A stretch of 64,000 nt of DNA from positions 64,001-128,000 of the IMG/VR virus record IMGVR_UViG_3300046615_000208; one strand, given 5' to 3'. The position numbers were made by a program, and so were the translations under genes. This stretch comes from a virus. Its lineage: Duplodnaviria > Caudoviricetes. The notes beneath the pieces are model-generated. The model worked only from the letters and a program-made list of their open reading frames with translations, ran no database searches and had not been told where the DNA came from. Positions 16,722 to 43,470 of the stretch are shown here, piece by piece (positions within the stretch are counted from its first letter, which is position 1; every line of letters begins with the position of its first letter).

Positions 16722-17390
16722 ATGGTACGACACCGCGCAAACCTACGAGACCGAGTAAGGACATGGTGGGACAAGAAGCCTGTGTCCCCTGTAGTTCTTC
16801 CGATTGTAGGAGGGGTATTGTCAGTCCTGTTGTTGATAGGGCTGGCATTAACCATTCCTCCGATCATCCACGACATCATCACGCCCAAGGTACCGGAGAA
16901 GACTACCCAACAGACGACGCCCACACCGGAGCAGAGTCTTCCGCCTGTGTTGCAGGTGCCTACTACACAGCCAAGCCCTAAGGCCACACAGGAACCTGTA
17001 CCTGTTCAGGCACCACAACCGGTAGCACCGGGGCCTCAGAACATTCCAGAGCCTGTAGCTCCACAGCCAGTGCCCGTACAGCCGGTGCAACCCTTCCAGC
17101 CGCAACCTGTACCGCAGAAACCACAGCCGGTACCTGTACAACCACCGCAGGTACCACAGGTGCCACACCTACCACCGCTACCGCCTCTGTTGCCAGTACC
17201 ACAGCCACTGCCGTTGCCATTACCATTGCCAAGTCTTCCAGAGGTCCTAGAGCCTGTTGTACCACCTATCCTAGGTCCGGTATTGGAGAAGCCACTGGAC
17301 ACACTAGATAAGGCTGTGGGAGGCACGCTGGACACAGTTGATAAGACAGTGGACGGTGTCACCGGAATCGTCGGAGGATTACTTCCATAG
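16722..17390 (+). CDS. membrane-anchored Pro/Gln-rich protein
   Basis: one TM followed by PQP/PVP low-complexity stalk and LDTxDKxV repeats. Confidence 0.75.
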   Translation: MVRHRANLRDRVRTWWDKKPVSPVVLPIVGGVLSVLLLIGLALTIPPIIHDIITPKVPEKTTQQTTPTPEQSLPPVLQVPTTQPSPKATQEPVPVQAPQPVAPGPQNIPEPVAPQPVPVQPVQPFQPQPVPQKPQPVPVQPPQVPQVPHLPPLPPLLPVPQPLPLPLPLPSLPEVLEPVVPPILGPVLEKPLDTLDKAVGGTLDTVDKTVDGVTGIVGGLLP

Positions 17391-17452
17391 TTACAAGAAA
17401 CGCTTAGAGGCATCAGCTTGCGTAGCTGGTGCCTCTTTGCTATTCTAGAGGC

Positions 17453-17986
17453 ATGAGAACGAAATGCGTACTTTGTAACTGTCGGATCAAAGACCGCCAC
17501 GCGGAACGTAAGACCTGCTCTACCGAATGCCGAAGCTCGTACAAGTGGAAGATGCGGACCATGGCTAAACACCACGACCGAAGCACTTCCGGTCAGCGCC
17601 CCAGCTTCAAGCCCGAAGACTGGACAAGCATCCTGAACAGGCATGGCAGGCGTTGTGCGTACTGCGGTACCAAGAAGGGGAAGATGACAATGGACCATGT
17701 CCTACCGCTCTCACGTGGCGGACGACACTGTGTCTCCAACGTCGTCCCTGCTTGCGGCCAGTGCAACAAGACCAAGGCTGACATGACCCTCATGGAGTGG
17801 AAGCGGAAGAACCTGTACGATCTGCGTCCGTGGACCATGACCACCAACGGGATCAAGATGAAGCGAGCCAAGTCTGGTAAGCTGAACTCCACTCCGCTCT
17901 TCGAGCAGATGCTGAGGGAGATGGCTGACAGGGCGCTTCTGGAGAAGTACCCGCTGACAGTTGACTACACTGACATACTGGTGTAA
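17453..17986 (+). CDS. HNH endonuclease
   Basis: CAYCG...TMDHVLPLSRGG...SNVVPACGQCNKTK; N-terminal CxxC...CxxxC; leaderless after TTGCGT-17-TATTCT. Confidence 0.9.
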   Translation: MRTKCVLCNCRIKDRHAERKTCSTECRSSYKWKMRTMAKHHDRSTSGQRPSFKPEDWTSILNRHGRRCAYCGTKKGKMTMDHVLPLSRGGRHCVSNVVPACGQCNKTKADMTLMEWKRKNLYDLRPWTMTTNGIKMKRAKSGKLNSTPLFEQMLREMADRALLEKYPLTVDYTDILV

Positions 17987-18017
17987 GCTGGAGGTAAGAC
18001 TAGAGAAAGGACAACTT

Positions 18018-18392
18018 ATGTTCGGGCGCAACAAGGGTAGGGGTTCCTATCCTGACCCGCCACAGGAGGCACCACGCCAGCGTATGCGGGCCTCATTCGG
18101 TGGCAGTAGGGGAGAGGATGTAATCTCCCGTAGGCTGGACCGACAGGACCCGGTACCGACTCCAGAAGAAAAGTCTGCGGCACTGGAAGCAATCATCAAC
18201 GCTGTACGTACAGCACAGGAACTGGGAGCATCACCGCACGAGGTTGACTCCGCTGTTCGTGGGTTCAACGTAGCAGTTACAAGAAACGCACAGGAAGGAT
18301 ATAACAATGGCGGACTACTACCCGAAGAGCCGTACGGATCACATCGCCAAGGCGATGAAGCTGGACCCCATCAAGGAGGAAATGGCTTCTAA
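18018..18392 (+). CDS. hypothetical protein
   Basis: AAAGGA RBS. Confidence 0.6.
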   Translation: MFGRNKGRGSYPDPPQEAPRQRMRASFGGSRGEDVISRRLDRQDPVPTPEEKSAALEAIINAVRTAQELGASPHEVDSAVRGFNVAVTRNAQEGYNNGGLLPEEPYGSHRQGDEAGPHQGGNGF

Positions 18393-18534
18393 GATTTACG
18401 CCGAACGGTACTCCGACTGCTTCTGCCGAGAGGATCACGACATCAATCCGCCGTGCGGGTCTGTGGTGTGGGCACGAAAAAAGGTGGATGAAATCTTGGC
18501 AATCGCAGAGAAAGCTGGTATGCTGAAGTCATGA
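18307..18534 (+). CDS. hypothetical protein
   Basis: AAGGA RBS. Confidence 0.65.
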   Translation: MADYYPKSRTDHIAKAMKLDPIKEEMASKIYAERYSDCFCREDHDINPPCGSVVWARKKVDEILAIAEKAGMLKS

Positions 18535-18719
18535 AACAGCGAGTAGTAATCCAAGACCTGCACAGTGCCACCATGCCAGTGATCACAGAAATGATCGTGT
18601 CTGACGTCCAAGCCATAACAGGAGACCTGATCCGGTTCGAGCATGATAATGGTAGCGTTACCATCATCAACATCGCTTCGGGCTGGAATGTCTCCATCTC
18701 CGAATATGATGAAGACTGA
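18531..18719 (+). CDS. hypothetical protein
   Basis: ATGA overlap. Confidence 0.6.
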   Translation: MKQRVVIQDLHSATMPVITEMIVSDVQAITGDLIRFEHDNGSVTIINIASGWNVSISEYDED

Positions 18720-19032
18720 TATGAAGATCATGCGGAGCAACTACGACAAGGCGCACCGTTGTCCCGGATGGGCAGGCCCAGCCCTCAAGGGCATCGAGCC
18801 GTCCATCTGCGCCAGTGGGTCCTTTGCCAAAGAGTTCCACATCCAGCAGTACTGGTATAACAAGGACCCGTACTGGCGCTTCCATAAGTGCCGCACGTGT
18901 GGTACGGTTGTACTCCCCAGCAACTTCCGTAAGTTCGATCCGGTGTGGTGGAAGTTCGCCGCTCAACGGAAGTGGGACAACTGGAAGTACGAACGAGAAC
19001 TTGACAAACGGAACAAGAACAACCTAGAATAG
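18706..19032 (+). CDS. Zn-binding hypothetical protein
   Basis: HRC...C...HKCRTCG. Confidence 0.65.
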   Translation: MMKTDMKIMRSNYDKAHRCPGWAGPALKGIEPSICASGSFAKEFHIQQYWYNKDPYWRFHKCRTCGTVVLPSNFRKFDPVWWKFAAQRKWDNWKYERELDKRNKNNLE

Positions 19033-19036
19033 GAAC

Positions 19037-19423
19037 ATGATGAAGAAACTTATTATTGCAGGCGTTATCGCCATTGCCGCTTTCTCGCTGACCGGCTGTC
19101 AGAACCTCGTCCAGAACGAACCGGTTGTGTGTACGGTGGTGGACAAGGACCGATCAACCGAATCCTCGAAGAACGGTTCCAAGTCCGTCTTCCGTATCTA
19201 CACCGAGAACTGTGGTGAGGACAACGAGACGCTGGGTCTTGCCGACAACATCTTGCAGGGCAACTTGCGCTCGTCGGACATGTACGCCAAGATCAAGGTA
19301 GGCGAGACCTACCGGTTCGAGACCGTAGGTATCCGTAACGGAGCCTTCTCATCCTTCCGCGAGATCGTACGGTTCACCAAGGTGTCGGCACCAGTGCCGG
19401 GAATGACGGAGCCTGCCAAGTGA
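19037..19423 (+). CDS. lipoprotein
   Basis: signal peptide with lipobox LTGC. Confidence 0.8.
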   Translation: MMKKLIIAGVIAIAAFSLTGCQNLVQNEPVVCTVVDKDRSTESSKNGSKSVFRIYTENCGEDNETLGLADNILQGNLRSSDMYAKIKVGETYRFETVGIRNGAFSSFREIVRFTKVSAPVPGMTEPAK

Positions 19424-19644
19424 CCAAGCTCCAGAAGATCATCAGCCTTACGGCGGCGTTCGTCCTCATGGTAGGCTTGAGTGCCTGTGCCACTGACGGG
19501 ACAGTATACAACGCGGACAAGACGTACGAGTTTACAATGACCATGAATGATGGTACGGTTGTACCATGCATCAAGCACGAGGACTTCTACGGGTTCGCTT
19601 GCAACTTCGACAAGGCAGTCCGGTCCAACACACCGAAGCCATGA
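19420..19644 (+). CDS. small lipoprotein
   Basis: signal peptide with lipobox LSAC. Confidence 0.75.
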   Translation: MTKLQKIISLTAAFVLMVGLSACATDGTVYNADKTYEFTMTMNDGTVVPCIKHEDFYGFACNFDKAVRSNTPKP

Positions 19645-19826
19645 CCGAAGACGGGACTTTCGAAAAGGGAGACCGTGTCAAGATCAACGCTCCGAAGGAG
19701 ACCTGCCACGGACGGACTGGCGTAGTTGACAACTACACCGAGTCTGGTAAGCTCATCTACGTAACCACTCAGACCGGCAGGGTCTGGGTGTATCCGTGGG
19801 AGATAGCCCTACACAAGGAGAGGTAG
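19641..19826 (+). CDS. SH3/KOW-like small protein
   Basis: FEKGDRVKI...HGRTGVV. Confidence 0.7.
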   Translation: MTEDGTFEKGDRVKINAPKETCHGRTGVVDNYTESGKLIYVTTQTGRVWVYPWEIALHKER

Positions 19827-19828
19827 CA

Positions 19829-20011
19829 ATGTACAAAGAAGGCGACAAGGTCCGCATCATTGCCAAGGATGATTCCGAGTACGGCAGGGTATGTCCTGTT
19901 CACGGTATGTCCGGAGACCACACCGTGTGGGTCAACGTAGGGTTCGGTATGGCTTGGCGCTACCGACCCGATGAAGTAGAAGCAGTAACCGACAACCAAG
20001 AAGGAGAATAG
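19829..20011 (+). CDS. SH3/KOW-like small protein
   Basis: YKEGDKVRI. Confidence 0.7.
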   Translation: MYKEGDKVRIIAKDDSEYGRVCPVHGMSGDHTVWVNVGFGMAWRYRPDEVEAVTDNQEGE

Positions 20012-20014
20012 ACA

Positions 20015-20152
20015 ATGGCACGATTCAATGGTAAGCAGTACAAGGGTGCGCAGAAGGCACTCAAGGAAATCCGCCGAGAAGAGGCAGAGAAGCGTGACGC
20101 GCAGACCCTGCCCGAGAACCGCCGTCAGGCGCGTCTTACAAAAGACGCATAG
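20015..20152 (+). CDS. small basic protein
   Basis: AAGGAG RBS; MARFNGKQYKGAQK...LTKDA, whose last codons are the repeat motif. Confidence 0.65.
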   Translation: MARFNGKQYKGAQKALKEIRREEAEKRDAQTLPENRRQARLTKDA

Positions 20153-20241
20153 CTCGACCTCATGCGGCTACCGTGTTGACAGCAGCACGGTGGCCGTATA
20201 AGCTTTAGCTACAAGATCAAATCAAACCGAAAGGGAAGATC

Positions 20242-20730
20242 ATGAAGTTTGCAGTCGGAGACAAGGTAACCATCAAATCCGCGAGCAAGACGTGGAGCGG
20301 GGTACGTGCCGTGGTTAAGGAGCATGATTCCGAAGAGAAGATGTACCCGTACACGCTGACCCTGATCGATGATACCAGTACCGGATCGTACAAGAGCGGC
20401 GATACCGCCGAGGCATTCCGAGAGGATGAACTGGTGGCGATGGCTGACGTGGTTGCGGCAGACATCGAGAAGGCCAAGCAACTGCTCCAGAAGCACGGTA
20501 TCCCCTTCCGCATCTACTCTCGCGAGGACGTGGACAAGATGCTGAACGTGTACGAACAGGACCCGAACGATCCACTGGATACCCGTACGTTCCGCAGTGA
20601 GATCGCCGCCTTCATCATGGAGGGGCAGGACTGGAAGAATCTCTCTGACAAGGGGCAGGACGACGAGGCCGCTATCTGGGACATGGTAGAGGGTGCACGT
20701 AACGATCACCCGGAATGGTTCGTGAACTGA
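20242..20730 (+). CDS. SH3-like domain protein
   Basis: FAVGDKVTI. Confidence 0.75.
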   Translation: MKFAVGDKVTIKSASKTWSGVRAVVKEHDSEEKMYPYTLTLIDDTSTGSYKSGDTAEAFREDELVAMADVVAADIEKAKQLLQKHGIPFRIYSREDVDKMLNVYEQDPNDPLDTRTFRSEIAAFIMEGQDWKNLSDKGQDDEAAIWDMVEGARNDHPEWFVN

Positions 20731-20918
20731 TGGCACGGATGAGTTTCACGGTTGAGGCCGTGGGTGAGAAAGTACGACTAAAGCAGGAGGACGGTACCTA
20801 CACGGACTTCTCCCCTGCTCCTGCCAACCAGATGGCAGGAGGTTTAATTAAGGCGGCGATGGAAGCAAACGGGCAGATACCCCCGAAGGCACTTACGATC
20901 ACGTTTCACTTCGAATAG
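20730..20918 (+). CDS. hypothetical protein
   Basis: TGATG coupling. Confidence 0.6.
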   Translation: MARMSFTVEAVGEKVRLKQEDGTYTDFSPAPANQMAGGLIKAAMEANGQIPPKALTITFHFE

Positions 20919-20968
20919 TTACAAGAAACGCATTTGACACCCCCGACCGAGGAAGGTAGGCTGTAGGT

Positions 20969-21256
20969 ATGAAGACAGACGGAACACCAGAGACCGAGTT
21001 CGAAGAGGCCATGCCGCTGCTCGCCGCTATCGTAGGGCAGAACGCACGTGACCTCCAGTGGACTAACGACCAACTGCTGGCAAGCAAGGAGCGACAGCTT
21101 CGCCAGATGCAACAGGACTACGTGAAGCTGTACGCGTCCATGCAGAAGGTGGCAGAACGTACCGACTCCGCCACTGCCTACAGCGCACTGGACAGGTTCT
21201 GGCACGTGAACGAAGATGCCAAGAAAGAACTTGCCAAACCGGATGATGTGTACTAG
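20969..21256 (+). CDS. coiled-coil hypothetical protein
   Basis: leaderless after TTGACA-17-TAGGCT. Confidence 0.7.
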   Translation: MKTDGTPETEFEEAMPLLAAIVGQNARDLQWTNDQLLASKERQLRQMQQDYVKLYASMQKVAERTDSATAYSALDRFWHVNEDAKKELAKPDDVY

Positions 21257-21288
21257 ACTGGTATTACACCAAGCGAAAGGAAAAGAAC

Positions 21289-21648
21289 ATGTGGCAAGAT
21301 AAGCTTAAGTTCAGCGTCGGAGACACCGTCAAGATCGTCCGGGACAACAAGGTCTGGAACGGATCGGTGGCAAAGATCGCGGCAATCACCAACGACGCAC
21401 GGTACCCCTACCTGCTTCACTTCATTTCCTCATCGCGGCCCAACACCGTGGGCGAGAAGTTTGAGTGGGACGAGGAATCGCTCGACCGCCATGACATGAA
21501 CCAGCGTGTCAAGCTGGAGCGGATCATTGCGGAGAAGTTCTCCCATCCGGTAGATGTGTTCTACTCACCGACTACCGGCTGTGCGGTAGTCATGGCACCG
21601 AACGGATACCTGTTCCGTATCCTTGCCGATGGGACCATCGACAAGTGA
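21289..21648 (+). CDS. SH3-like domain protein
   Basis: FSVGDTVKI; resembles the N-terminus of 20242..20730. Confidence 0.75.
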   Translation: MWQDKLKFSVGDTVKIVRDNKVWNGSVAKIAAITNDARYPYLLHFISSSRPNTVGEKFEWDEESLDRHDMNQRVKLERIIAEKFSHPVDVFYSPTTGCAVVMAPNGYLFRILADGTIDK

Positions 21649-21802
21649 TGTGTAATGAATGCAAGTTAGACAACGGCTGGCACCACGTAGAGTGTAGTCA
21701 AAAGGTATCCATACTCTGGACCACTACACTCACCAAATAAATAGAACCGACCCGAAGGGCCATCCACTTGACAGTGAGTGGCCCTTTGTGTATGCTAGAG
21801 AT

Positions 21803-22015
21803 ATGAAGAAAGCATGGCAGTACCGTAAAGGTGTAGTCCTCATTAAGGGAGACACCGACCCGCTGTTGTCCGCTACGCTGACCAAGGTGGGCTGGAACAA
21901 GTGGCGGCATCACTACTACAGGCAGACCGACCCCAACCTAGACGGCTGGGAGATACGGACTGACAAGCATGTTCAGACACTAATTGACAACAGAGCAGTG
22001 GAGAGGGTAGTGTAG
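21803..22015 (+). CDS. hypothetical protein (paralog of next gene)
   Basis: YRKGVV...ATLTKVGWNKW. Confidence 0.7.
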   Translation: MKKAWQYRKGVVLIKGDTDPLLSATLTKVGWNKWRHHYYRQTDPNLDGWEIRTDKHVQTLIDNRAVERVV

Positions 22016-22019
22016 AGAT

Positions 22020-22238
22020 ATGAAGAAGCCAAGCAGATACCGTGTCGGATCAGTGTTCATCTACAACGCAGGTCACCCGATGTTCGAAGCCACTTTGTCC
22101 AAGGTAGGACCGGACCACTGGATGAAGGTCAACCACAAGAGCAAGGTCCGCCAGTACTACAGTAACAAAACGGTAGAGGACCTGTTCGCTACCAAGCTGT
22201 TGACTCTGATTCATGACTCTGGTAAGGTGGAGCGGTAG
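22020..22238 (+). CDS. hypothetical protein (paralog of previous gene)
   Basis: YRVGSV...ATLSKVGPDHW. Confidence 0.7.
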   Translation: MKKPSRYRVGSVFIYNAGHPMFEATLSKVGPDHWMKVNHKSKVRQYYSNKTVEDLFATKLLTLIHDSGKVER

Positions 22239-22342
22239 GTTGACAAGGGTGCGGTAAGTGTGTATATTATCTACTTCCAAGGTTTACGGTATAATAGAGG
22301 TAGAAGCACAATCCTCTAGATACTAAAGCACTAGGAACTAAG

Positions 22343-22942
22343 ATGTCAGAAAATCCCTTCCTGTCACCCCCACCGCCCCCTCCGTTCAACCCCGAGGACA
22401 CTACCGTTGTGTCCCGAAGTGCCGGAAAGAACTCTGCCGCAGAGCAGGGCCAGAACATCCCAATGGGATGGAAACCGACAGCCGCAGAACCCGTTGCCGT
22501 AATTCGTTGCACCGGTACCGCCAGCACTACGGGTGAGCAGTGCAAGCGTTGGAGCCTACGTGGCACCAACGTCTGCACTAAGCACGGTGGACAGCTACCG
22601 TCAGTCCGTGAGCACGCCGAGGCGGTGGTGGAATCAGCCCGCATGAGGTTGATGGGAATGGCTGACGATGCCGTAGACGGACTGGAAGACCTCATTGCTA
22701 TCGGCACTGCGCCACAGATTCGGCTTGCCGCTATCAAGGAAGTTCTGGACCGCTCAGGCGTGAAGGGTGGACCCGACCTATCCGTTGAGGTCACGCACTC
22801 CGTATCATACAAAGACGAAATCTTCAACCGCCTCAAGGAAATCAAAGAGCGCAAGGAAGCCATGGAGAAAGAGAAGGCTGCAATCCTTGGAGAAGATATT
22901 GTTGATGCCGAGGTAGTTGACGAAGCCGAAGAAACCGAGTAA
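22343..22942 (+). CDS. HGGxSTG-like Zn-finger protein, possible terminase small subunit
   Basis: RCTG..STTGEQCKRW....TNVCTKHGG, then helical IRLAAIKEVLDRSG segment typical of TerS-like proteins. Confidence 0.55.
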   Translation: MSENPFLSPPPPPPFNPEDTTVVSRSAGKNSAAEQGQNIPMGWKPTAAEPVAVIRCTGTASTTGEQCKRWSLRGTNVCTKHGGQLPSVREHAEAVVESARMRLMGMADDAVDGLEDLIAIGTAPQIRLAAIKEVLDRSGVKGGPDLSVEVTHSVSYKDEIFNRLKEIKERKEAMEKEKAAILGEDIVDAEVVDEAEETE

Positions 22943-22951
22943 GCTGTAGCC

Positions 22952-23269
22952 ATGGAAGATAATGTAGAGGATGGGACCGAGGGCGGCTACACCGCTTCTG
23001 CGGAAATCCCACCAGAAGAGCTAGAGAAGATGCGGCGAATGCGCCCGCAGTTTTTCACCGACAACATTGACGAGCAATACGACGAGGCCATGGAACTCTT
23101 CGGAGGCAAACCGATCCCCAAGATCGGAGAGCCTGCCGAGTACATCATCACCGACCGAAACATGGTGCCGTCCCTCTCCGAGGCCTACCGTAAGGCCCTC
23201 ATCGAGAAGTACGGGCACATCCCCGAACTGAACGAAATGGTTGCGGTGGACGAGGAACCCGACGACTAG
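22952..23269 (+). CDS. acidic hypothetical protein
   Basis: ORF whose stop overlaps the repeat motif. Confidence 0.7.
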   Translation: MEDNVEDGTEGGYTASAEIPPEELEKMRRMRPQFFTDNIDEQYDEAMELFGGKPIPKIGEPAEYIITDRNMVPSLSEAYRKALIEKYGHIPELNEMVAVDEEPDD

Positions 23270-23330
23270 TTACAAGAAACGCACAGCGGCTCCACTTGAC
23301 GGTGGGGCCGTTTGCATGTAAGCTGTAACC

Positions 23331-23957
23331 ATGAACACATTCAAAGAAGGCGACCGTGTCTCCCACCCGAACTACGGAGAGGGTACCGTTACCAGTCCTT
23401 ACCCCGGAACCGGATGGCCTACCGTTCGGTTCGACACCGATGGATTGATCTCGACCGATGCTTCCCTGCTGACACCGGTACGGGCAACTCCTGCCCCACT
23501 TTTCAAGACAGGCGACCGCGTCATTCATCCGCTCCATGGTCCCGCTGGTGTTCTCGGATACGATGCGGCCCGTAAGCTGGTGGAGATCGTGCCGAACACG
23601 TACGGTGGGAACTCCACTCACGTCCATCCGTCCAGCTTGACACTGGCCGAACCGCCCACTAAGTTCAAGGTAGGAGACCGAGTCTCCCACCGCATCCACC
23701 GTGACGGTACCGTGGAAGACATACAGGCCAACGGGTTGCATGTCGTGAACATCGGCGGTAACCGTGTCTACATGGCACTGGAACACCAGATCAGCCATGC
23801 GGTACCGGAACCGACCTACCACATCTGCATCGAAGAGATTACCGGTGCCGCTCATGTTCCCGGTAGCCTTACCGCAAAAGAAGTTGCCAACTACATCGAG
23901 CATGCGCTAGACTGGCGGGTAGCTAAGGAAATCACGATCACCAAGGAAGGAAACTAA
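23331..23957 (+). CDS. triple SH3-like (FKxGDRVxH) repeat protein
   Basis: three repeats FKEGDRVSHP, FKTGDRVIHP, FKVGDRVSHR. Confidence 0.8.
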   Translation: MNTFKEGDRVSHPNYGEGTVTSPYPGTGWPTVRFDTDGLISTDASLLTPVRATPAPLFKTGDRVIHPLHGPAGVLGYDAARKLVEIVPNTYGGNSTHVHPSSLTLAEPPTKFKVGDRVSHRIHRDGTVEDIQANGLHVVNIGGNRVYMALEHQISHAVPEPTYHICIEEITGAAHVPGSLTAKEVANYIEHALDWRVAKEITITKEGN

Positions 23958-24220
23958 TGACCGTCTTCCACAACCCTCCGAAGCCCGGAGACGAGGTCAC
24001 CCTGCTGGCCTACGTCAACACCGCCATCAACGACTTCGAACTCTCTCCCGGTGATACCGCTACCGTGTCCCGTATCGACGGGGACGAAATCTACCTTGAC
24101 GTGGTCTACACCTCAGCACACGCCAACTCACCCTATGCCGGTGAACATGAGGACTGGTTCACGGTCCCGTTTGACGAGGCCGACGAATACTTCGCAGGCA
24201 TCATCCGGATCGAAGAGTAG
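23957..24220 (+). CDS. hypothetical protein
   Basis: TAATG coupling. Confidence 0.7.
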   Translation: MTVFHNPPKPGDEVTLLAYVNTAINDFELSPGDTATVSRIDGDEIYLDVVYTSAHANSPYAGEHEDWFTVPFDEADEYFAGIIRIEE

Positions 24221-24250
24221 AGTTACAAAAAACGCATAGAAAGGAACAGC

Positions 24251-24391
24251 ATGGAAAATGAATTTGGAGAGAACCCGTCCTTCTACATCTGGCCCGAGGG
24301 CCACGAGGAAGGCACCGCCTATCCGGAGGACTTCGATGAGCGGCTAGCCCGAGCGCTCGCGACTGAAGGTCTGGACTACGAACGGGTCTAG
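24251..24391 (+). CDS. small acidic protein
   Basis: AAAGGA RBS; flanked by two repeat motifs. Confidence 0.65.
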   Translation: MENEFGENPSFYIWPEGHEEGTAYPEDFDERLARALATEGLDYERV

Positions 24392-24452
24392 TTACAAAAA
24401 ACGCATAGCGGTCACGGTTTACATCGTGGCCGCTTTTGTGTATATTAGAGGC

Positions 24453-25255: not shown

Positions 25256-25283
25256 TTACAAAAACCGCTTAGGAAGGAGCAAC

Positions 25284-35442: not shown

Positions 35443-35539
35443 TTACAAAAACCGCTTAGGCCCTAGGACTTGCACCTAGGGCCTTAGGCGTGTAATGTTG
35501 TTCTTAGAGGGAGAGAGGGACTCTTCCGGATAGGGCACC

Positions 35540-35725: not shown

Positions 35726-35827
35726 GTTACAAAAACCGCTTAGGGAGTCGGACTTGCATCCGGCTCCCCTAGCGGGTAAGCTTTAGGTAATGGAGCAACC
35801 GGCTCCCGGAAGTCCTAGGAGGACACA

Positions 35828-36091
35828 ATGGGTTACATGGAAGAATCAGACCGCCTCGAAGAAGCAGCGAACAAGAACCCGCTCAAAGAAGGCGTAGTCG
35901 GAAGCAAGCTCGTTGCGTACTTCGAGAACCTTGACGGACGCGTAGCGGTCGATGCCGAGTCCATCGAACACGTGGGCGTGGCCCAGCACGACTACAAGAT
36001 CACCTTCGAGGGTGGACTCGTTCAGGCCTACCGCGTGACGTTCGCGGACGGCATGAGCTCCGAGATTCTGGACGCAACGCCGCTCAACTAG
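35828..36091 (+). CDS. hypothetical protein
   Basis: AGGAGG RBS; cassette. Confidence 0.75.
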   Translation: MGYMEESDRLEEAANKNPLKEGVVGSKLVAYFENLDGRVAVDAESIEHVGVAQHDYKITFEGGLVQAYRVTFADGMSSEILDATPLN

Positions 36092-36186
36092 TTACAAAAA
36101 CCGCTTAGGGTCCGGACTAGACATTCGGACCCTAAGCCGGTAGACTCATCACAACGGAACAATCCGGAAACCAAAAGGAGCAAGTC

Positions 36187-36474
36187 ATGAAGTCGGTAAT
36201 CACCAAGCTGGAAGTCTCGGAGCGTCTGCTGGGCGTGGATCGCTACGAACTGGAAGTCAAGGGCCAAAAGGCCCACAACACCATCGTGGAACTCCACACG
36301 GACATCAACACCGGAGACCGCCACGTCTTCGTCCAGACGCCGGTAAACGGCGGCCTGACGCCGTCCACGGCTGATGCAGTCGCTCGACGCCTCATCGACG
36401 GTGCACGGAAGTACGCGGGAAACCACGTGACACCCGCCAGCGTGGTACGGGTTGGACGCTACGCGGCCAGCTAG
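36187..36474 (+). CDS. hypothetical protein
   Basis: AAGGAG RBS; cassette. Confidence 0.75.
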   Translation: MKSVITKLEVSERLLGVDRYELEVKGQKAHNTIVELHTDINTGDRHVFVQTPVNGGLTPSTADAVARRLIDGARKYAGNHVTPASVVRVGRYAAS

Positions 36475-36568
36475 TTACAAAACACGCGTAGAGCCTCGGA
36501 CTTGTGTCTGAGGCTCTTTGCGTGTAAGCTCTAAGTATCGGAACAATCCGAAGACGAAAGGCAAGACA

Positions 36569-36826
36569 ATGAACATCAAGCTCATTCACAACATCGTGGA
36601 CATGACCCAGATGCACGGATTCGGCAACGATTTCTCGCTGGTCTACGGCTTCGATAACGGCACCAAGATGGCCGTATCGCGTAACCCCATGACAGGTGGA
36701 CACAAGGCCGGTTTCATGGCCGTCCTGCCCTACGACAAGGCCGGTAACCAGATTGACGAGCGTGCCGAGTCGTGGCTCACCCCGCAGGAAGTCGCGGAGA
36801 AGATGGAAATCCTCGCCAGCGAGTAG
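36569..36826 (+). CDS. hypothetical protein
   Basis: AAAGG RBS; cassette. Confidence 0.75.
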   Translation: MNIKLIHNIVDMTQMHGFGNDFSLVYGFDNGTKMAVSRNPMTGGHKAGFMAVLPYDKAGNQIDERAESWLTPQEVAEKMEILASE

Positions 36827-36909
36827 TTACAAGAAACGCGTAGGGCCTAAGTTGACTTCGGTCAGCTTAGGCCTTATGCTTGTAGTACACACCAACGAAA
36901 GAGGAAACC

Positions 36910-37116
36910 ATGGCTCGCTACTCCACTCCAGCAACTCGCGCCTACGCTCGTGACAAGGCCGAAATCATCGGCGCGGCTGAGCGCGTGATCTACGGCGAAA
37001 TCCTCGACTTTGTCCTGCGGGTAGGCAGGCACAAGGCTACGCCGTTCCTCGCCGTACTGGGCGGGTTCGCGTACATCATCTTTGGTCACGGGCTTGTGAA
37101 CTCCATAAACCTGTGA
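36910..37116 (+). CDS. small protein with C-terminal TM
   Basis: GAGGA RBS. Confidence 0.65.
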   Translation: MARYSTPATRAYARDKAEIIGAAERVIYGEILDFVLRVGRHKATPFLAVLGGFAYIIFGHGLVNSINL

Positions 37117-37393
37117 TACAATAAACTCACAGACATACACTGAAGCCTCCGGAGATGACCACCAAATCTCTCCGGAGGCTTCGCCAATTGTGGGATAGTT
37201 GGCTTACAAAAAACGCGTAGCGGATAGGTTTGCATTCCGGCGCAAAGGTGGTAAGCTTAGAACATGGAAGGGGAGGTTAGGAGCCTCCACCCGCCAGACT
37301 AAGAATCTGGGGGTTCGGGAAGTGATCGCCCACCGATCACCGGCAGGCCAGTCCGCAACTGGCCGTATAACTCAACAGTGAAAGGTGGACACC

Positions 37394-37603
37394 ATGGTAG
37401 AAGTTCCCATGGAAGAGGCTGACGTTCTGGAACAGGTCAAGGCCAAGACGGGAGCGGTAGACGCGAAGGTGTCTGGGAGGCCCACAAACTGGGTCTGGTC
37501 GGTCCTGCTGGCATTCCCGGATGGTCCGGACGCCTACACGTTCCAGACGCGTCTGGTGGACGTAGAAGGCCCTGAGATTCGGTTCGTCGGCTTCGACTTC
37601 TAG
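37394..37603 (+). CDS. hypothetical protein
   Basis: stop overlaps motif. Confidence 0.7.
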   Translation: MVEVPMEEADVLEQVKAKTGAVDAKVSGRPTNWVWSVLLAFPDGPDAYTFQTRLVDVEGPEIRFVGFDF

Positions 37604-37712
37604 TTACAAAAAGCGCATAGCCTGTCTTCGGACAGGCTATTTGCATTTGGGCGCAAAGGTGGTAAGCTTATTCCATAAGCAGTTCACAACTCCACAGAGA
37701 AAAGAGAGACCA

Positions 37713-37919
37713 GTGAAGGTTTTCTTCGAAGCACTTGTCGATGGACAGTACGTCAACCAGAAGCGCCTCGCGGATATCCCGGATGAGAAAGCTTACGCTA
37801 GGGCGGCTAAGGCCTACCCGAACGATCCGGACTACGTGGAGGAAATGCTCGACGGACGCGGCTACATCACCATCAAGGGCCACAACTGCCGGTTCACTTA
37901 CCAGCAGGACAGCCTCTAG
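37713..37919 (+). CDS. hypothetical protein
   Basis: cassette gene. Confidence 0.7.
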   Translation: MKVFFEALVDGQYVNQKRLADIPDEKAYARAAKAYPNDPDYVEEMLDGRGYITIKGHNCRFTYQQDSL

Positions 37920-38022
37920 TTACAAATAGCGCATAGGGCCTCTACGGAGGCCCTATTTGCATTTGGGCGCAAAGGTGGTATCGTTGAGTTATCGGCAAGG
38001 GTTGCCGGTGAGAGAGGGAACC

Positions 38023-38337
38023 ATGGACAAGTACACGACTGAAGCTCTGGAAGCTGCGAAGAACAGCACTAGCTCGATGAGCGCGGGGGATCGCAACGCC
38101 GCTCCCTACCTGCTCAAGCTGGACACTGTGGAGCAGCGTAAGCGTGCTGTAGGGGACGCGCACACTCGGATGAACCTCATGGGGTTCCGCTACTCCGAAG
38201 CTGTCTACCACTCCGTTAGTGACCTGCTGAAGAACATTGCCGCAGGGGAAGAGGACAAGCCACTCTATGGCGAAGCCACTGCGAAGAAGTACCGGGACGC
38301 GGAAAACGAACGCCGGAAGCTGGAACGCGGCTACTGA
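38023..38337 (+). CDS. hypothetical protein
   Basis: GAGGG RBS; last gene of the + arm. Confidence 0.75.
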   Translation: MDKYTTEALEAAKNSTSSMSAGDRNAAPYLLKLDTVEQRKRAVGDAHTRMNLMGFRYSEAVYHSVSDLLKNIAAGEEDKPLYGEATAKKYRDAENERRKLERGY

Positions 38338-38351
38338 TACAAAAAGCGCTT

Positions 38352-38382
38352 AGGCTCTCATCCTCCGGGGTGGGAGCCTTTT
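38352..38382 (+). terminator. intrinsic terminator ending the + arm
   Basis: AGGCTCTCATCC-TCCG-GGGTGGGAGCCT-TTT. Confidence 0.7.
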
Positions 38383-38607
38383 GCTTTGCCTGCGGGTGGC
38401 CCTCTGTGACGTTCTGGGAGCCTCTGAGGCTCGGGGTGGCACTCTCACCCACGCGGGCGATTCTAGGGCCTTAGACGGGCACGTAAGGCCTGCGGTAGGT
38501 CTACACGTGCTGTGCGACTCTGGGCGGCTGTTTAAGGGCCTAACTGGGCGCAGACGTACAAAGACCCCCAACCTTTCGGTTGAGGGCCTCTGTGGGGCTG
38601 TGAGGGC

Positions 38608-38871
38608 CTAGAACGGCGGTTCAAACTCTGGGAGGTAAGTCCGGAGTTCCGGAGCGGGAAGTTCGGGGACTACGTGACCGTAAGGGCAAGCGTTGTCGTA
38701 GTCGAGGTAGTCGTGCTCTTCGCAGTAGTAGGCCTGTTCATCCGCGAAGTGATCGACGTTGTCCGCCGCCATTGCTTCGCGCCACGCGGAGTCATCCCGG
38801 TTGTAGTCCTGCTCTTCCTGCCACTGTACCTGAGACATTTTTTCCTCTCGTGGCCGGTGTTTCCGGCTCAT
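38608..38871 (-). CDS. acidic hypothetical protein
   Basis: last gene of the - arm; promoter TTGCGC-17-TAAGCT. Confidence 0.7.
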   Translation of the reverse strand: MSRKHRPREEKMSQVQWQEEQDYNRDDSAWREAMAADNVDHFADEQAYYCEEHDYLDYDNACPYGHVVPELPAPELRTYLPEFEPPF

Positions 38872-38935
38872 GTACTGAGCTTAGCACGGCAAACAGAAAA
38901 CGCGCAACCCCGAAGGGTTACGCGTTTTTTGTAGG

Positions 38936-39169
38936 CTACAGATCGTTCCGGTGTTCGTAATCCGAAACCAGCTTAGCCTCGATAGCTTCGTCAAGCTCTT
39001 CCCGTGTCACGAACGGCTTGTTAGGGTGTTCGTGTGACTCCATGGCCTCGCACTTTTCGCAAGTCTCGTACAGGTCCGGGAGGTAGATTGCGGCAACCCA
39101 AGATTCTTCACCGGTAGCCTTCGTCCACTCGGCAGCGGCTTCGTTGAACGGGATGAGTGATGCGGACAT
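38936..39169 (-). CDS. hypothetical protein
   Basis: AAGGAG RBS. Confidence 0.75.
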   Translation of the reverse strand: MSASLIPFNEAAAEWTKATGEESWVAAIYLPDLYETCEKCEAMESHEHPNKPFVTREELDEAIEAKLVSDYEHRNDL

Positions 39170-39261
39170 TGGTTTCTCCTTGGTTGTTTTTGACCTTGTA
39201 CCTAAAGCATAGCACGGTTTGGTGGAGCGTGTCTAGTCGGGAGGCTGTGCGTTTTTTGTAA

Positions 39262-39312
39262 GTCCCATTTTTATTTTATGGGTCCTCCGGTTTCCCTGCT
39301 GGTGGGCTTCAT
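39262..39312 (-). ncRNA. candidate small RNA, copy 2
   Basis: TTGACA-17-TAGACT then ATGAAGCCCACCAGCAGGGAAACCGGAGGACCCATAAAATAAAAATGGGAC. Confidence 0.5.
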
Positions 39313-39404
39313 GGTTCAAGTCTAAGGCCTGTCGGCCTGAGTGTCAAGCCTACGGCAGACACAAAAGAGGGGAGCCTTTCGGCTCCCCTCTTATGCGTTT
39401 TTTG

Positions 39405-39662
39405 TTACCATGCGAAGTAGCTTGAGGTCCGCCAGCTACGGAGGATGGTGTAATCGGTAAGGCGTTCGGCCTGTTCCCACGTGGTGGGCTGTACAAGGCC
39501 CGTAGCGGGGTTCAGAATGGCTGGCTTGACCGCGTGTACGCCGATGAGGATTGCAGGCTCTCCTTCGAGCGTGAAGCGCTTTGCGGCGATTGCCTCGCGG
39601 CGTTCCATGCTCACGATGGTGAGCGGCTGAGTGGCGAGGATTCGAGCGACTGTGCGGAACAT
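39405..39662 (-). CDS. hypothetical protein
   Basis: AGGGAG RBS. Confidence 0.7.
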   Translation of the reverse strand: MFRTVARILATQPLTIVSMERREAIAAKRFTLEGEPAILIGVHAVKPAILNPATGLVQPTTWEQAERLTDYTILRSWRTSSYFAW

Positions 39663-39752
39663 TTTGACTCCCTGACTGGTGGCTTGCTGTTGGTACAAGC
39701 TTAGCATAGGTCCGGTGCTGTTGCCAACACCGAACCTATGCGTTTTTTGTAG

Positions 39753-39998
39753 CTAGTCGATGTCCACCGCGACACGTGCCAGCGATCCGGTACCGAAGTA
39801 GTCCACATTCAGCAGGTACTCCGCGCCATTCCAGCGAGCGCGTGCGCCGCTCCTGTAGCCGTTGTCGAGCATGTGATCAGCGATGGCCTCGCTGGATGCG
39901 TTCTCGATGGCGTAGGCCTTGCCACGGACGACGTAGCGGCTTCCGGCCACTCCGCGAACTGTGCGCTGGGTCTGGTTCTTCTTGATGGTCTTTCCCAT
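39753..39998 (-). CDS. hypothetical protein
   Basis: AAGGAG RBS. Confidence 0.75.
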   Translation of the reverse strand: MGKTIKKNQTQRTVRGVAGSRYVVRGKAYAIENASSEAIADHMLDNGYRSGARARWNGAEYLLNVDYFGTGSLARVAVDID

Positions 39999-40094
39999 TG
40001 TCTTTGTGCTCCTTGTGAAGTGTGTTGTTGAGTTGCCCTAGTTGGCATTCCCGCTTAGGTGATACTTGAGTGTACCACCTAAGCGAGCAAACCG

Positions 40095-40343
40095 CTAGGG
40101 GAGTTCCAGTAGCCAAGTGTCTGAGTAGACATTCTTTCGGATGATAACGGTATCATCCTTTGCCAGTTCTTCCAGCTTCCGGGAGTAGTTCCGGATGTTT
40201 TCCGGAGTCTCCGCTATGTCGTGGTAGGAGAGGACATTCTCTACCGTCTTCCGGATGAGCGTTGCGCGATCCTGTGAGTGGGAATCGTAGAATCCATCGT
40301 GCCATTCTTCGATGTACTGGAGGATGTTTGCTTCGCGTGACAT
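40095..40343 (-). CDS. hypothetical protein
   Basis: AAGGAG RBS. Confidence 0.75.
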   Translation of the reverse strand: MSREANILQYIEEWHDGFYDSHSQDRATLIRKTVENVLSYHDIAETPENIRNYSRKLEELAKDDTVIIRKNVYSDTWLLELP

Positions 40344-40433
40344 GTCCTGCTCCTTTGTTCTCGGCTTGTTCCGATAACTAGAGTCTACGCTAGTCCGGAG
40401 AGTTATGCAACCCTCCGGACTAAGCGTTTTTTG

Positions 40434-40625
40434 TTAGTCTTCGAGGTCTTCGATCTCTTCCGCCTCTGCGGGCTGGAATCCGTGCTGGTCTTCGAGTTCT
40501 TCGAGGGTGGTGTAGAAGAATCCACCGATCCCATCCGGAGTGATGAAGTACATGTCATCCTTGCGGATGTAGTAGGCCGTGTCCACGGCGAGTTCGGAAC
40601 GCGGGGTGATGGTTGCCTGTGCCAT
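40434..40625 (-). CDS. very acidic small protein
   Basis: AAAGGA RBS; E/D-rich C-terminus. Confidence 0.75.
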   Translation of the reverse strand: MAQATITPRSELAVDTAYYIRKDDMYFITPDGIGGFFYTTLEELEDQHGFQPAEAEEIEDLED

Positions 40626-40713
40626 TGTTTTTTCCTTTGTTTGAGTGGCTATGTATCTAGCTTAGCCTAGGTGAGGGAGTCTTGCAACTCCCCCACCTAA
40701 GCGTTTTTTGTAA

Positions 40714-40968
40714 CTACGCTTTACCGTAGTGGCCACCATCCGGCAGGCCAGCTGTGCAGGGGTAGAAGTGGATCGGCCACGCGGCATCTTCGCCACCCTC
40801 AGCGAGGAAATCCGAGTTGTAGTCGAGCCACAGATCACGCTTGGAGTCGAACTCGTCGTTAAACCAGTCGTGGCCTTTGGTGGCCTTTGCAACGTCTGCA
40901 CAGTCTGCGCGGTGGACGCTGACGTCGTAGTCGTTGTTCCCGTTGCCGTTAATGGTTACCAGCTTCAT
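40714..40968 (-). CDS. hypothetical protein
   Basis: AAGGAG RBS; VHRADCADV. Confidence 0.75.
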   Translation of the reverse strand: MKLVTINGNGNNDYDVSVHRADCADVAKATKGHDWFNDEFDSKRDLWLDYNSDFLAEGGEDAAWPIHFYPCTAGLPDGGHYGKA

Positions 40969-41061
40969 GATGACTCCTTAGGTCTCGGCTTGTTCCGATA
41001 TGACTAGCGTACACGCAAAAGGTCCGAGATACAAATCTCGGACCCTATGCGTTTTTTGTAG

Positions 41062-41493
41062 CTAGCCGATGTAGATGCTCACCTTGTTGGCAACATCCCA
41101 GACGGCGAGTTGTTCGCGTTCCTTGGCAACGAGAATGGCCATCTCGTAGTCTTCGAACCACTCTGAGGCCTCTGCGTAGACGACTCCGGACTCTACCCAT
41201 GTTCCCATGAGTCCGAGGCCGTCAGTGGCTGCGTAAGCCATTCCCAGAGCGAATTGGTAGTCTCGTGTGTCCGAGTCTGCGAGATTGAACATGTGGGGCT
41301 TGTGGAGGCCTGACACGTAGTAGCCGTGCGTGTGCGTGGCGATTGCCATTGTGGGGCTGGAGAGGTCCAGCGTTACGCCACCGTTGGCGTGTGTCTCACG
41401 TGAGAGGGTGACGCCGCGAATCTGACCATAGGTCCGGAGCTTCGGGGTGACGCCGGAGTTTTCGTTACGCATGGTTTCGACGGTGACAGTCAT
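41062..41493 (-). CDS. hypothetical protein (paralog of 29941..30300)
   Basis: AGGAGG RBS; shared motifs. Confidence 0.8.
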   Translation of the reverse strand: MTVTVETMRNENSGVTPKLRTYGQIRGVTLSRETHANGGVTLDLSSPTMAIATHTHGYYVSGLHKPHMFNLADSDTRDYQFALGMAYAATDGLGLMGTWVESGVVYAEASEWFEDYEMAILVAKEREQLAVWDVANKVSIYIG

Positions 41494-41628
41494 TGTTTCC
41501 TCCTGAGTGGATCGGATGGTTTGATATGAAGAGCATACCACTACTTTAGGAGATGATGCAAACTACGCGATTGTTACGTGCGTTTTTTGTAAGTTGCGTG
41601 TGAGCGCGGATGCGTGTATGCTCAGAGT

Positions 41629-41682
41629 ATGAAGCAACCGATTGAAGCTGGGTCACTGGAGGACCCCTAAAATAAGTGGGCC
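41629..41682 (+). ncRNA. candidate small RNA, copy 3
   Basis: TTGCGT-17-TATGCT then ATGAAGCAACCGATTGAAGCTGGGTCACTGGAGGACCCCTAAAATAAGTGGGCC. Confidence 0.5.
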
Positions 41683-41782
41683 GGAAAGTAGGCATCACTC
41701 CATTCTCTCATAGTTTTTGGGTGGTTGTCAAGCTGCCGGAGGGCAAAGAAAAGGGGAGCCTTTCGGCTCCCCTTCCCTCACC

Positions 41783-42094
41783 TTAGAGGGTTTCGTACTT
41801 GCCGTCCGCCTGACGGTACTTGATGTACGTGCAACCCGCGTCATGCGTGGCCCAGTCGAGCGGCTGGAACGCGTCCTCCGAGTCCGCGTCACCATAGAAG
41901 TAGCCGGTGAAGTAGCAGTTGTCGTCGTCGTCGTACAGCTTGAAGTGGGTGCCCTTGCCAGCCTTGCCAGCCTTGATCGCGTCACGCTCTGCGGGGCTGG
42001 TGCCGTACACGCGGGGCTTCTCCAGCTTCTCCAGCTTCTCACCGAAGTTCGGGTTGTTCTCTTCGATTGCCGAGTGAGTGATCGTGAATCCCAT
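41783..42094 (-). CDS. hypothetical protein
   Basis: AGGAG RBS; FKLYDDDDNCYF.G...FQPLDWA..DAGCT.I.Y. Confidence 0.8.
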   Translation of the reverse strand: MGFTITHSAIEENNPNFGEKLEKLEKPRVYGTSPAERDAIKAGKAGKGTHFKLYDDDDNCYFTGYFYGDADSEDAFQPLDWATHDAGCTYIKYRQADGKYETL

Positions 42095-42199
42095 TGTGAC
42101 TCCTAAGTCCGTTTCTCAAGCTCCCTGCTTGATGACTTAAGTCTCTCATACATTCCGGACGGATGCAACTCCATTCTGACAATGCGTTTTTTGTAAGTG

Positions 42200-42258
42200 T
42201 GGTTTGTGGAGGTTGGAGTTTTTGGGGTCCTCTGGTTTCCCTGCCTCCGGAGCTTCAT
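42200..42258 (-). ncRNA. candidate small RNA, copy 4
   Basis: TTGACT-17-TAGACT then ATGAAGCTCCGGAGGCAGGGAAACCAGAGGACCCCAAAAA. Confidence 0.5.
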
Positions 42259-42360
42259 AGTATGAGTCTAAGGCCTATTCGGCGCAGAGTCAAGCGGCGC
42301 TGTGTGGCGTTCTAAGCCACGCAAAAGGACCCTACCGTAGTAGGGTCCTAGTGGCCGGTG

Positions 42361-42633
42361 CTAGTCGCAGCAGTGGCGGCTGGTGCACGTGTGGTTGTGG
42401 ATGTTGCACGCGCTGTCCGTCAGGATTCCCTCGGTGGACTCGGTACGCTCCACTTCCTGCATCTCGGAGGGGTCAGCGTATCCGCCCAGTTCCTGATCGC
42501 ACTCGGTGCACTCGGTGTTGCTGGTGGAGTACTCGCCACAGTTGGAGCAGGCGAACAGGGTGGGGCAGTCGCACTCGGTGTTGGCCGGTTCCATGTTTTC
42601 GTACTGCCGCTGTGCTGAGGCGAATCCGCGCAT
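42361..42633 (-). CDS. Cys-rich zinc-binding protein
   Basis: CDC, CSNC, CTEC, CNIH motifs. Confidence 0.7.
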   Translation of the reverse strand: MRGFASAQRQYENMEPANTECDCPTLFACSNCGEYSTSNTECTECDQELGGYADPSEMQEVERTESTEGILTDSACNIHNHTCTSRHCCD

Positions 42634-42730
42634 CTTGACTCCTAAGTCGTATCGGCTTGTTCCGATGTACTAAGCCTAAGGCATGCGGTGAGGGATTGCA
42701 ACACCATGCGGTGAAGCGTTTCTTGTAACC

Positions 42731-43180
42731 CTATGCGGTGCACTCTGGGTAGCTCCACAGTTCGTCGTATTCGAACTGGTGAGCGTAGGCCTCAGCCTCG
42801 CACTCGTTGGCTCCCATAGTGTGTGCAAGCTCATGGAACAGGATGTGATTCCCCCACGCTGTGTAGGCAAGCTCAGGGGAGATAAGGACAGCGTACTGTC
42901 CATTGTCCATAGGGACAGTGCATCCTCCCTGCCCAACAGTGGAGAGTTCAGCGCCACAGTTGTCTTCATTCTGGAACAGGAACACCACGTTCTCAGGGTA
43001 GTCTACGCCACCATCAGCAAGGGCCTCACGCGCCCAGAGTGAGGGTAGCTTGAATGGTGCGAGGGATAGGGTGGTGGAGTAGTTGGCAGTCTCCCTAACA
43101 GGCGCTGACGTGGGCGCTGGGGCCTGCACTGGTGCAAAGATAGCTGACAGTGTGAGCAGGATGGTGAGCATGATGTTCAC
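42731..43180 (-). CDS. secreted HExxH metallopeptidase-like protein
   Basis: signal peptide; ILFHELAHTMG...ECEAEAYA. Confidence 0.7.
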   Translation of the reverse strand: MNIMLTILLTLSAIFAPVQAPAPTSAPVRETANYSTTLSLAPFKLPSLWAREALADGGVDYPENVVFLFQNEDNCGAELSTVGQGGCTVPMDNGQYAVLISPELAYTAWGNHILFHELAHTMGANECEAEAYAHQFEYDELWSYPECTA

Positions 43181-43214
43181 TGTGACTCCCTTGTGAGTGG
43201 TTGACTAAGTCAAT

Positions 43215-43470
43215 CCTCTCATGAGTTTGTCTCATGTGTCAACTCGAAACACTAAGCGTCTTTTGTAAAGTTTGTGCCTTGTTTCTACACACGCGCACAT
43301 GTGCACGCGATTGTCCTCTATTGTTTGGTGTTTGTCAACATGCTGGCCCTAAGAGTTTTTTGTAACCCTCGTGTGGGAGTGCGTGATTATCCTCTAGTTT
43401 TTTGGGATTGTCAATGGGTTTGGCAAAGAGTTTTTTGTAACCTCGTGCGCGTGAAGCGTTTTTTGTAACG
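43215..43470 (-). promoter_or_regulatory. three tandem leftward promoters, each preceded by the motif
   Basis: TTGACA on the - strand near 43238-43243, 43334-43339 and 43409-43414, each 13-14 bp after a motif copy. Confidence 0.7.

Follow-up and report, generated by a model that had tools for sequence, protein, structure and literature searches.

The present work concerns a short recurrent sequence, here called the box, that lies between small genes and upstream of promoters in a 64,000-nucleotide stretch of phage DNA (the window), comprising bases 64001-128000 of the virus record IMGVR_UViG_3300046615_000208, a genome of 171,752 bp with 53% G+C that is rated 99% complete. The rIIA-like and portal proteins of this phage are closest to those of the Arthrobacter phages Racecar, Mimi and Atuin (~194 kb) and of Streptomyces Jay2Jay-type phages, with an rIIA identity of 32-34% to these relatives. 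The host looks actinobacterial, congruent with promoters that carry a TAnnnT -10 and with eight genes whose start lies exactly 6 nt behind the -10, since leaderless mRNAs are typical of Actinobacteria. The phage itself looks lytic, considering its rIIA protein and the long terminal repeat of the relatives. The boxes are spread over the following region:

16672..43469, both strands: array of ~75 small genes, mostly without known relatives, with ~60 box copies between them

On the gene map the cassettes run on the plus strand at 16.6-38.4 kb and on the minus strand from 43.5 down to 38.6 kb, the two blocks converging, and the boxes are co-oriented with the genes (plus at 16.6-38.3 kb, minus at 38.6-43.5 kb). 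Family searches of 73 array proteins returned matches only to DUF7178, HNH, a Tudor/CarD-RID-like domain and, weakly, M12. Recoded stop codons were considered as the cause of the few long open reading frames (ORFs) and rejected, since no alternative code yields a coherent map; the genes are simply small.

The box has the consensus (TAG)TTACAAAAAACGC(W)TAG, that is (TAG)TTACAA[A/G]A..CGC[A/T]TAG, and spans 17-20 nt, with its upstream end at ~-62 relative to the transcription start. A strict pattern, GTTACAARA-N0-2-CGC, yields 36 occurrences where 0.01 would be expected; a looser form gives 50-52, and the variants CTACAAAAAACGC and TAACAAAAAACGC raise the total to ~62. All copies of the 172-kb genome fall within window positions 1361-43469, nearly all of them at 16.6-43.5 kb, and the opening TAG is usually the stop codon of the upstream ORF. 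Over 96 copies from two genomes, at least 10 positions carry 1.7-2 bits, more information than the promoter hexamers hold. A typical cassette is composed as follows:

28582..28601, plus strand: box, with stop TAG at 28582-28584, TTACAAAAGACGC at 28585-28597 and ATAG at 28598-28601; the upstream ORF ends at the G
28596..28631, plus strand: predicted hairpin of ~16 pairs, from GC-ATAG of the box to a few bases before the -10, with a 4-nt loop in the -35 (minimum free energy, MFE, -29.3)
28611..28639, plus strand: promoter, TTGACA, 17-bp spacer, TAGACT, with a gap of 13 from the box

Two simple roles for the box were rejected. As a three-frame stop it works in Racecar (TAG, TGA, TAG), whereas two frames are closed in this phage and the Atuin stops both fall in one frame; as a second promoter it lacks a -10-like hexamer at the right distance. 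IMG/VR scans with looser box patterns for wider relatives gave single chance matches only, the box is absent from other phages encoding a DUF7178 protein, and literature searches returned no description of it in actinobacterial phages. An inverted imperfect copy, GTTACAAAGTACGC, lies at 17466-17478 (minus strand) within the opening codons of the gene that the 17391 cassette serves, and is conserved at 35442 in the relative IMGVR_UViG_3300013308_000019 (hereafter G001, 80-90% identical in blocks).

Box-to-promoter spacing in the phage and its relatives

Forty-three boxes of this phage are followed by a promoter of the host sigma-70/sigma-A type (TTGnnn, 17 bp, TAnnnT), as scored with a matrix trained on the cassettes; an E. 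coli-consensus scan finds only 9 sites, because the -10 is here TAAGCT-like. The promoter calls are genuine, with independent support from the ATG that stands exactly 6 nt after TAnnnT in eight cassettes:

17441-17455, 20957-20971, 23319-23333, 24441-24455, 24677-24691, 25106-25120, 27571-27585; 41585-41632 (+): leaderless cassettes

We expressed the spacing as D, the number of bases by which the start of the -35 follows the initial T of TTACAA; D equals the gap behind the box plus 13. D is 25-28, i.e. a gap of 12-15, in 36 of the 43 promoters (binomial P ~1e-32 against a uniform 13-61), the other values being 15, 17, 31, 37 (twice), 40 and 60. No scored promoter is found at D 18-22 or 32-34, and the sole promoter read by eye there, at 31382, has a D of 21 (gap 8). 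In G001, 38 of 44 promoters have D 25-28 and 41 fall within 24-29. The standard deviation of D is 0.76, versus 0.37 for the spacer between -35 and -10 and 10.5 for the distance from -10 to start codon; thus indels are common in the cassettes, but not in the interval between box and -35. The box-to-promoter distance is held as tightly as the core-promoter spacer.

An earlier note on this DNA had described a gap of held length and varying sequence, and both properties were recovered: pairwise identity between cassettes is 0.36-0.40 in the gap, versus 0.85 in the box. The individual gaps it listed were also reproduced, namely 13 at 23269, 28200, 28584, 28878, 30300 and 40701 (minus), 14 at 17390, 25976, 34096 (13 if the -35 is read as TTTGCA), 35181, 35726 and for the box near 41049-41061 (minus), exceptions of 2 (20918), 4 (24636) and 23-24 (37603, 37919), and off-phase gaps of 8 (31382), 18 (41592, minus) and 27 (20136). 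Of the off-phase gaps, two of which it placed at divergent promoter pairs, the one at 41592 (gap 18) belongs to a real pair.

The spacing is also kept where the typical hairpin or orientation is lacking. Among 35 hairpin-less cassettes in four genomes, D is 25-29 in 25 and 15-17 in six, with none at 18-24. Two sites of the window illustrate the range of settings:

43181..43480, minus strand: four boxes (43468, 43440, 43365, 43268) and three tandem hairpin-less promoters with a gap of 13-14, inside a 450-bp intergenic region
33039..33096, plus strand: inverted box (CTAAGCGTTTTTTGTAAG, 33039-33059), 11 nt before TTGACA (33067), with an 18-bp spacer and TAGATT; a hairpin encloses the -35

The boxes of the three tandem promoters (43268-43440, minus strand) do not abut a stop codon, and their gap sequences are unrelated. 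An inverted box is found also in Racecar (5942), with 13 nt between its near end and the -35, and in both phages the centre of the inverted box is at the usual distance from the -35. As a separate observation, the intergenic region at 43181-43629 combines CA-rich repeats (CCCACAC...) with its three tandem strong -35 promoters, and resembles the clusters of major early promoters in lytic phages elsewhere.

The same design is present in the cultured relatives. Racecar carries it in a ~20.5-kb terminal repeat, as TAG followed by TTACAAAACTTGAATAG, an arm, TTGACA, an arm and TAGTCT, and the Atuin form is TAA followed by CAAAAACTTCGGTAG or CTTACAAAAAGTTCGGTAG. Of the Racecar promoters, 21 of 23 have a D of 25-28, as do eight of 12 in Atuin, and several Atuin units with a full T-run terminator before the box still keep this distance. 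In Jay2Jay (1-10,400, minus strand) the small genes of the terminal repeat are each followed by a GC hairpin, then a conserved box of another sequence (CCGGACA...) and then a TTGnnn/TAGACT promoter. Judged from these genomes, upstream boxes, each specific to its lineage, may be general in the phage group. In its terminal repeat Atuin has perfect parS-like palindromes, TGTTTCACGTGAAACA, just upstream of box-promoter units at ~15,100-16,300 (minus strand), and the Racecar repeat holds a gene for a ParB-like nuclease domain, while no parS sites are present in the window.

Aggregated, the spacing in hairpin-less, tandem, distant-relative and inverted cases favours a constraint at the level of DNA, without proving it. 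The best single reading, which we hold with about even confidence, is that the box is a DNA-level upstream promoter element centred near -55.

The hairpin enclosing the -35 and other points of weight

Several observations pull away from this reading, the first being the hairpin. Folding of each unit places a hairpin around the -35 in 77 of 120 cassettes, about two thirds, with a stem of 12-19 bp (MFE -23 to -35 kcal/mol) that begins at CGC or WTAG of the box and ends 0-3 nt before the -10. The loop of 4 nt lies inside the -35 hexamer, the 3' arm fills the 17-bp spacer, and the left arm, composed of CGC and the gap of 13-14 nt, measures 16-17 nt and thereby mirrors the spacer. In an ungapped alignment of 31 cassettes, 62% of the cells are paired in the proposed register, against 51% in shuffles (0 of 500 reach this value) and 32-47% in slid registers, and the covariation score is twice that of shuffles and specific to register 0. 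Furthermore, a mismatch-neutral palindrome search returned 78 G:T against 9 A:C stem mismatches (49 stems, four genomes; P = 7e-15), implying that only the sense strand needs folding and that the hairpin is selected in sense-strand RNA. As it lies upstream of the start site of its own promoter, the hairpin can form only in read-through transcripts of the preceding gene. In these cassettes the gap serves as the hairpin's 5' arm, and its fixed length and free sequence are thus explained without any protein; indeed, the sense-RNA hairpin is their main cause.

A canonical intrinsic terminator has a U-tract immediately behind a GC-rich hairpin; the tail of these strong hairpins is the -10 region (e.g. 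GTAAGCTTTAGG), with T-runs in only some cassettes. The structure, which overlies the promoter that follows, probably terminates or attenuates transcription of the upstream gene or stabilises its 3' end. An antisense terminator, with the reverse complement of the box (GCG-TTTTTT-GTAAC) placed after the stem, was rejected because the wobble mismatches are confined to the sense strand and the Racecar A-run is not next to the stem. Similarly, a double-stranded protein palindrome or cruciform is excluded by the variable stems and the strand-asymmetric mismatches. The earlier note had also taken the non-consensus -35 elements as a sign of activator dependence, which does not follow from them: the -35 lies in the hairpin loop, and such elements are normal for actinobacterial sigma-A promoters.

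The second point of weight comes from boxes with no promoter to serve:

18277..18306, plus strand: promoter-less and hairpin-less box, with ribosome site and ATG directly after
31222..31263, plus strand: box with a terminator and no promoter; its AAAAGACGCTTAGCC is the 5' arm of a long T-run terminator hairpin

Further promoter-less copies lie directly before a ribosome site at 24223, 25256 and 32409, and those at 18277, 24223 and 25256 are kept in G001 (37781, 42030 and 42323); boxes with only a terminator are found also at 38337-38390 and 39407 (minus strand). Given these copies, the box is more than a promoter part. In addition, family searches of the 73 array proteins revealed no candidate DNA-binding protein, and a scan of bacterial genomes did not find the box repeated (2 chance matches), hence there is no sign of copying a host site. 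The spacing of the hairpin-less cassettes could, moreover, be inherited.

The third point concerns the cassettes outside the main mode, in which the earlier note had seen steps of one helical turn:

20919..20971, plus strand: short class, gap 2; box abuts TTGACA (20934), -10 TAGGCT at 20957-20962, no hairpin, leaderless with ATG 6 nt after the -10
24637..24691, plus strand: short class, gap 4; TTGACT (24654), TAGACT at 24677-24682, no hairpin, leaderless ATG at 24689
37604..37668, plus strand: long class, gap 23-24; 10-bp TTCG hairpin (37617-37640) between box and TTGCAT (37641), -10 TAAGCT
37920..37984, plus strand: long class, gap 23-24, paralogue of the 37604 cassette; hairpin at 37933-37956, then TTGCAT; G001 ortholog at 55327
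20136..20204, plus strand: off-phase, gap 27; -35 (TTGACA, 20176) within the hairpin as usual, but box 13 nt further upstream
31382..31437, plus strand: off-phase, gap 8; variant box CTACAAAAAACGC, TTGCGG, 17-bp spacer, TACGCT
41532..41632, minus strand: off-phase, gap 18; box 41592 common to a divergent plus-strand promoter, conserved in G001

The divergent plus-strand promoter starts 1 nt from the 41592 box and consists of TTGCGT, a 17-bp spacer and TATGCT, with ATG 6 nt later. In the gap-27 cassette, a small inverted repeat at 20131-20148 (GCGTC TTACAAAA GACGC) has the box core as its loop. The four genomes together provide 12 independent off-mode cassettes, of which seven deviate by no more than 1.5 bp from a multiple of 10.5 (P = 0.13). 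In six of the seven the box abuts the -35; without them one of six is in phase, and the remaining D values are 21, 23, 31, 40 and 60, plus one family at 37. The exceptions thus lend periodicity weak, non-significant support, and the gaps of 2-4 and 23-24 follow equally from an absent arm or from a whole small hairpin inserted before the -35. True helical phasing with RNA polymerase is nevertheless plausible on the sequences.

These points also bear on an explanation in which the spacing would be a by-product. The box would then mark gene ends and junctions, as a stop codon joined to a recombination homology patch of the kind known from promoter-early stem-loops (PeSLs) of T4-type phages, and hairpin geometry and descent would fix the distance, with no contact between a box-bound factor and RNA polymerase. 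Indeed, homology blocks between this phage and G001 start or stop at boxes (offsets -4 to +31), with whole units inserted or replaced, and this box-bounded exchange is, going by the alignments, PeSL-like modular shuffling. Moreover, most copies of the box start on the stop codon or overlap it, the overlap differing in Atuin (TAA inside TAACAAAA), and boxes occur without promoters. The arm would account for the modal gap and its loss or insertion for gaps 2-4 and 23-24, and PeSLs behave like junction marks (PMC2839356, PMC4122927). However, the spacing is kept in 25 of the 35 hairpin-less cassettes, in tandem boxes that abut no stop codon and have unrelated gap sequences, and across lineages with different hairpin geometry. 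Inverted boxes hold the same position, and a homology patch needs no 2-bit conservation of TTACAA and CGC exceeding that of the promoter itself. We regard this as a serious, if rather unlikely, explanation.

It is also conceivable, if quite improbable in our estimate, that the box acts in RNA, as a single-stranded signal in the upstream transcript, at the 5' base of the hairpin (for instance to direct RNA processing, to define the 3' end or its stability, or to dock a factor for termination or antitermination), the distance to the -35 reflecting only the hairpin. The sense-RNA selection on the hairpin points in this direction, as does the box being always predicted unpaired just 5' of the stem and co-oriented with transcription, directly after the stop codon and before the promoter-less terminators at 31222, 38337 and 39407; the gap-23/24 cassettes, too, keep box and hairpin adjacent while the promoter shifts. 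On the other hand, boxes are found at the standard distance from hairpin-less promoters and, inverted, upstream of promoters, the Atuin box often comes after a complete T-run terminator and goes with the promoter, and there is no match to any Rfam family.

The box as a candidate upstream promoter element

Returning to the reading of the box as a promoter element, with +1 taken from the leaderless units the box occupies ~-62 to -46, and its A-run is centred at ~-55 in the main class, ~-45 in the short class and ~-65.5 in the long class. The run thus forms an A/T-rich tract at the position of an upstream promoter (UP) element (~-40 to -60, on the polymerase face). In E. coli, the sites for the C-terminal domain of the RNA polymerase alpha subunit (alpha-CTD) lie on one helix face, with centres near -43, -53 and -63 (PMC3326320). 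The A-run centres lie ~2 bp upstream of these subsite centres, a suggestive fit. The likeness extends to the placing of the run roughly one turn of the helix before the -35, with variants ~10 bp nearer or farther. A UP element, by contrast, is a degenerate A/T tract that alpha-CTD binds via the minor groove and that raises transcription with no further factor, whereas in the box the flanks TTAC and CGC are invariant and the 3' half is specific to the lineage, features that suggest a sequence-specific protein, host or virion-delivered, rather than alpha-CTD alone.

The earlier note had placed a protein at -50 to -63, facing RNA polymerase. This interpretation was half right: the box is a real and conserved element at about that position, and the spacing is kept without the hairpin, while in most cassettes the hairpin arm explains the gap. 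A class I activator site would call for a known activator bound upstream on the same helix face and tolerating shifts of whole turns only; the family searches of the array proteins identified none, and the exceptions are in phase in seven of 12 cases (P = 0.13). Should a protein bind the box and touch RNA polymerase, its effect could be of either sign, as the same sequence evidence would serve an activator, an alpha-CTD contact or a repressor.

A repressor would be a protein made by the phage to shut transcription off, acting as a stoperator-like roadblock or by holding RNA polymerase; the box would be its operator, and ~50 early units would be silenced together. Stoperators of cluster A mycobacteriophages are asymmetric, numerous, co-oriented with transcription and located at gene ends, and the box resembles them in being asymmetric, present in ~60 copies, co-oriented and at stop codons, also where there is no promoter. 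They differ in that they are repressor sites of 13 bp, belong to temperate phages and stand in no fixed relation to a -35, whereas this phage looks lytic and none of its 73 array proteins matches a repressor-like family. Moreover, a site at -62 to -46 leaves the core promoter uncovered, and a roadblock needs no tight distance to the -35. We therefore consider an operator very unlikely.

Under the promoter-element reading, the cassette is a compact gene-end/gene-start unit of three separable modules: the box at the upstream stop codon, the hairpin, and a host sigma-A-type promoter that is often leaderless. The hairpin in the upstream read-through RNA would most likely terminate or attenuate that transcript right at the next promoter. 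The box would act on DNA, with its A-run centred near -55, and would be read by a sequence-specific protein of host or virion origin. In its fullest form, which we consider improbable, a dedicated factor, host or injected, would activate ~50 early promoters from same-face positions (~-45, -55 and -65), and the terminator with the -35 in its loop would hand RNA polymerase over to the next promoter, coupling termination to initiation, an arrangement with no described counterpart.

By analogy, the cassettes are a variant of the T4-type PeSL units (Arbiol et al. 2010, PMC2839356; Comeau et al. 2014, PMC4122927). A PeSL unites the stop codon of the preceding gene, set within A/T-rich sequence, with a host-type promoter and a stem-loop, followed by a ribosome site and start codon; its stem-loop can overlap the -35 or the spacer, tolerates G-T pairs and terminates transcription, and the units recombine into mini-circles. 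In both cases composite intergenic units separate small genes without known function, and gene gain, loss and replacement break at the units; here a host-type promoter is found in 43 units, the stem-loop sits at the promoter, and the small-gene array shows unit-bounded replacements. The present cassettes differ in their sharply defined box of 17-20 nt, more conserved than the promoter and at one fixed distance, in a hairpin apex that is nearly always the -35 itself, and in an actinobacterial-type host (TAnnnT -10, leaderless starts), with the hairpin only a predicted terminator. There is also a likeness to the early host-takeover modules that large lytic phages such as SPO1 and T5 carry in their terminal repeats, with tens of small early genes that each have a strong host-type promoter, the Racecar array being located in the terminal repeat. 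We know of no comparable fixed stop-codon box, or hairpin with the -35 in its loop, in those modules.

Other genes of the window deserve mention. Two early proteins (23331-23957 and 24453-24653) begin with a Tudor/KOW-like GDRV motif, and the larger one (23331-23957) has partial Pfam matches to the CarD/TRCF RNA-polymerase-interacting domain and to the PcrA/UvrD tudor domain; this protein may serve the phage by modulating the host RNA polymerase. Outside the array, at 49998-51419, a 473-residue protein contains a DndB-like (DNA-sulfur modification-associated) domain.

For the reading of such loci in general, the cassettes caution that, beside a promoter, a gap of fixed length and variable sequence can reflect an RNA stem and need not express a rule of protein spacing, and the -35 within a predicted terminator loop provides an example of a tight overlay of termination and initiation signals. 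Upstream promoter elements and UP function are poorly characterised in Actinobacteria. Should the box prove to be a true promoter element, it would represent the early-promoter code of a group of large actinobacterial phages, including the cultured Racecar and Atuin, and the cassettes would then offer portable strong promoter/terminator units for Actinobacteria.

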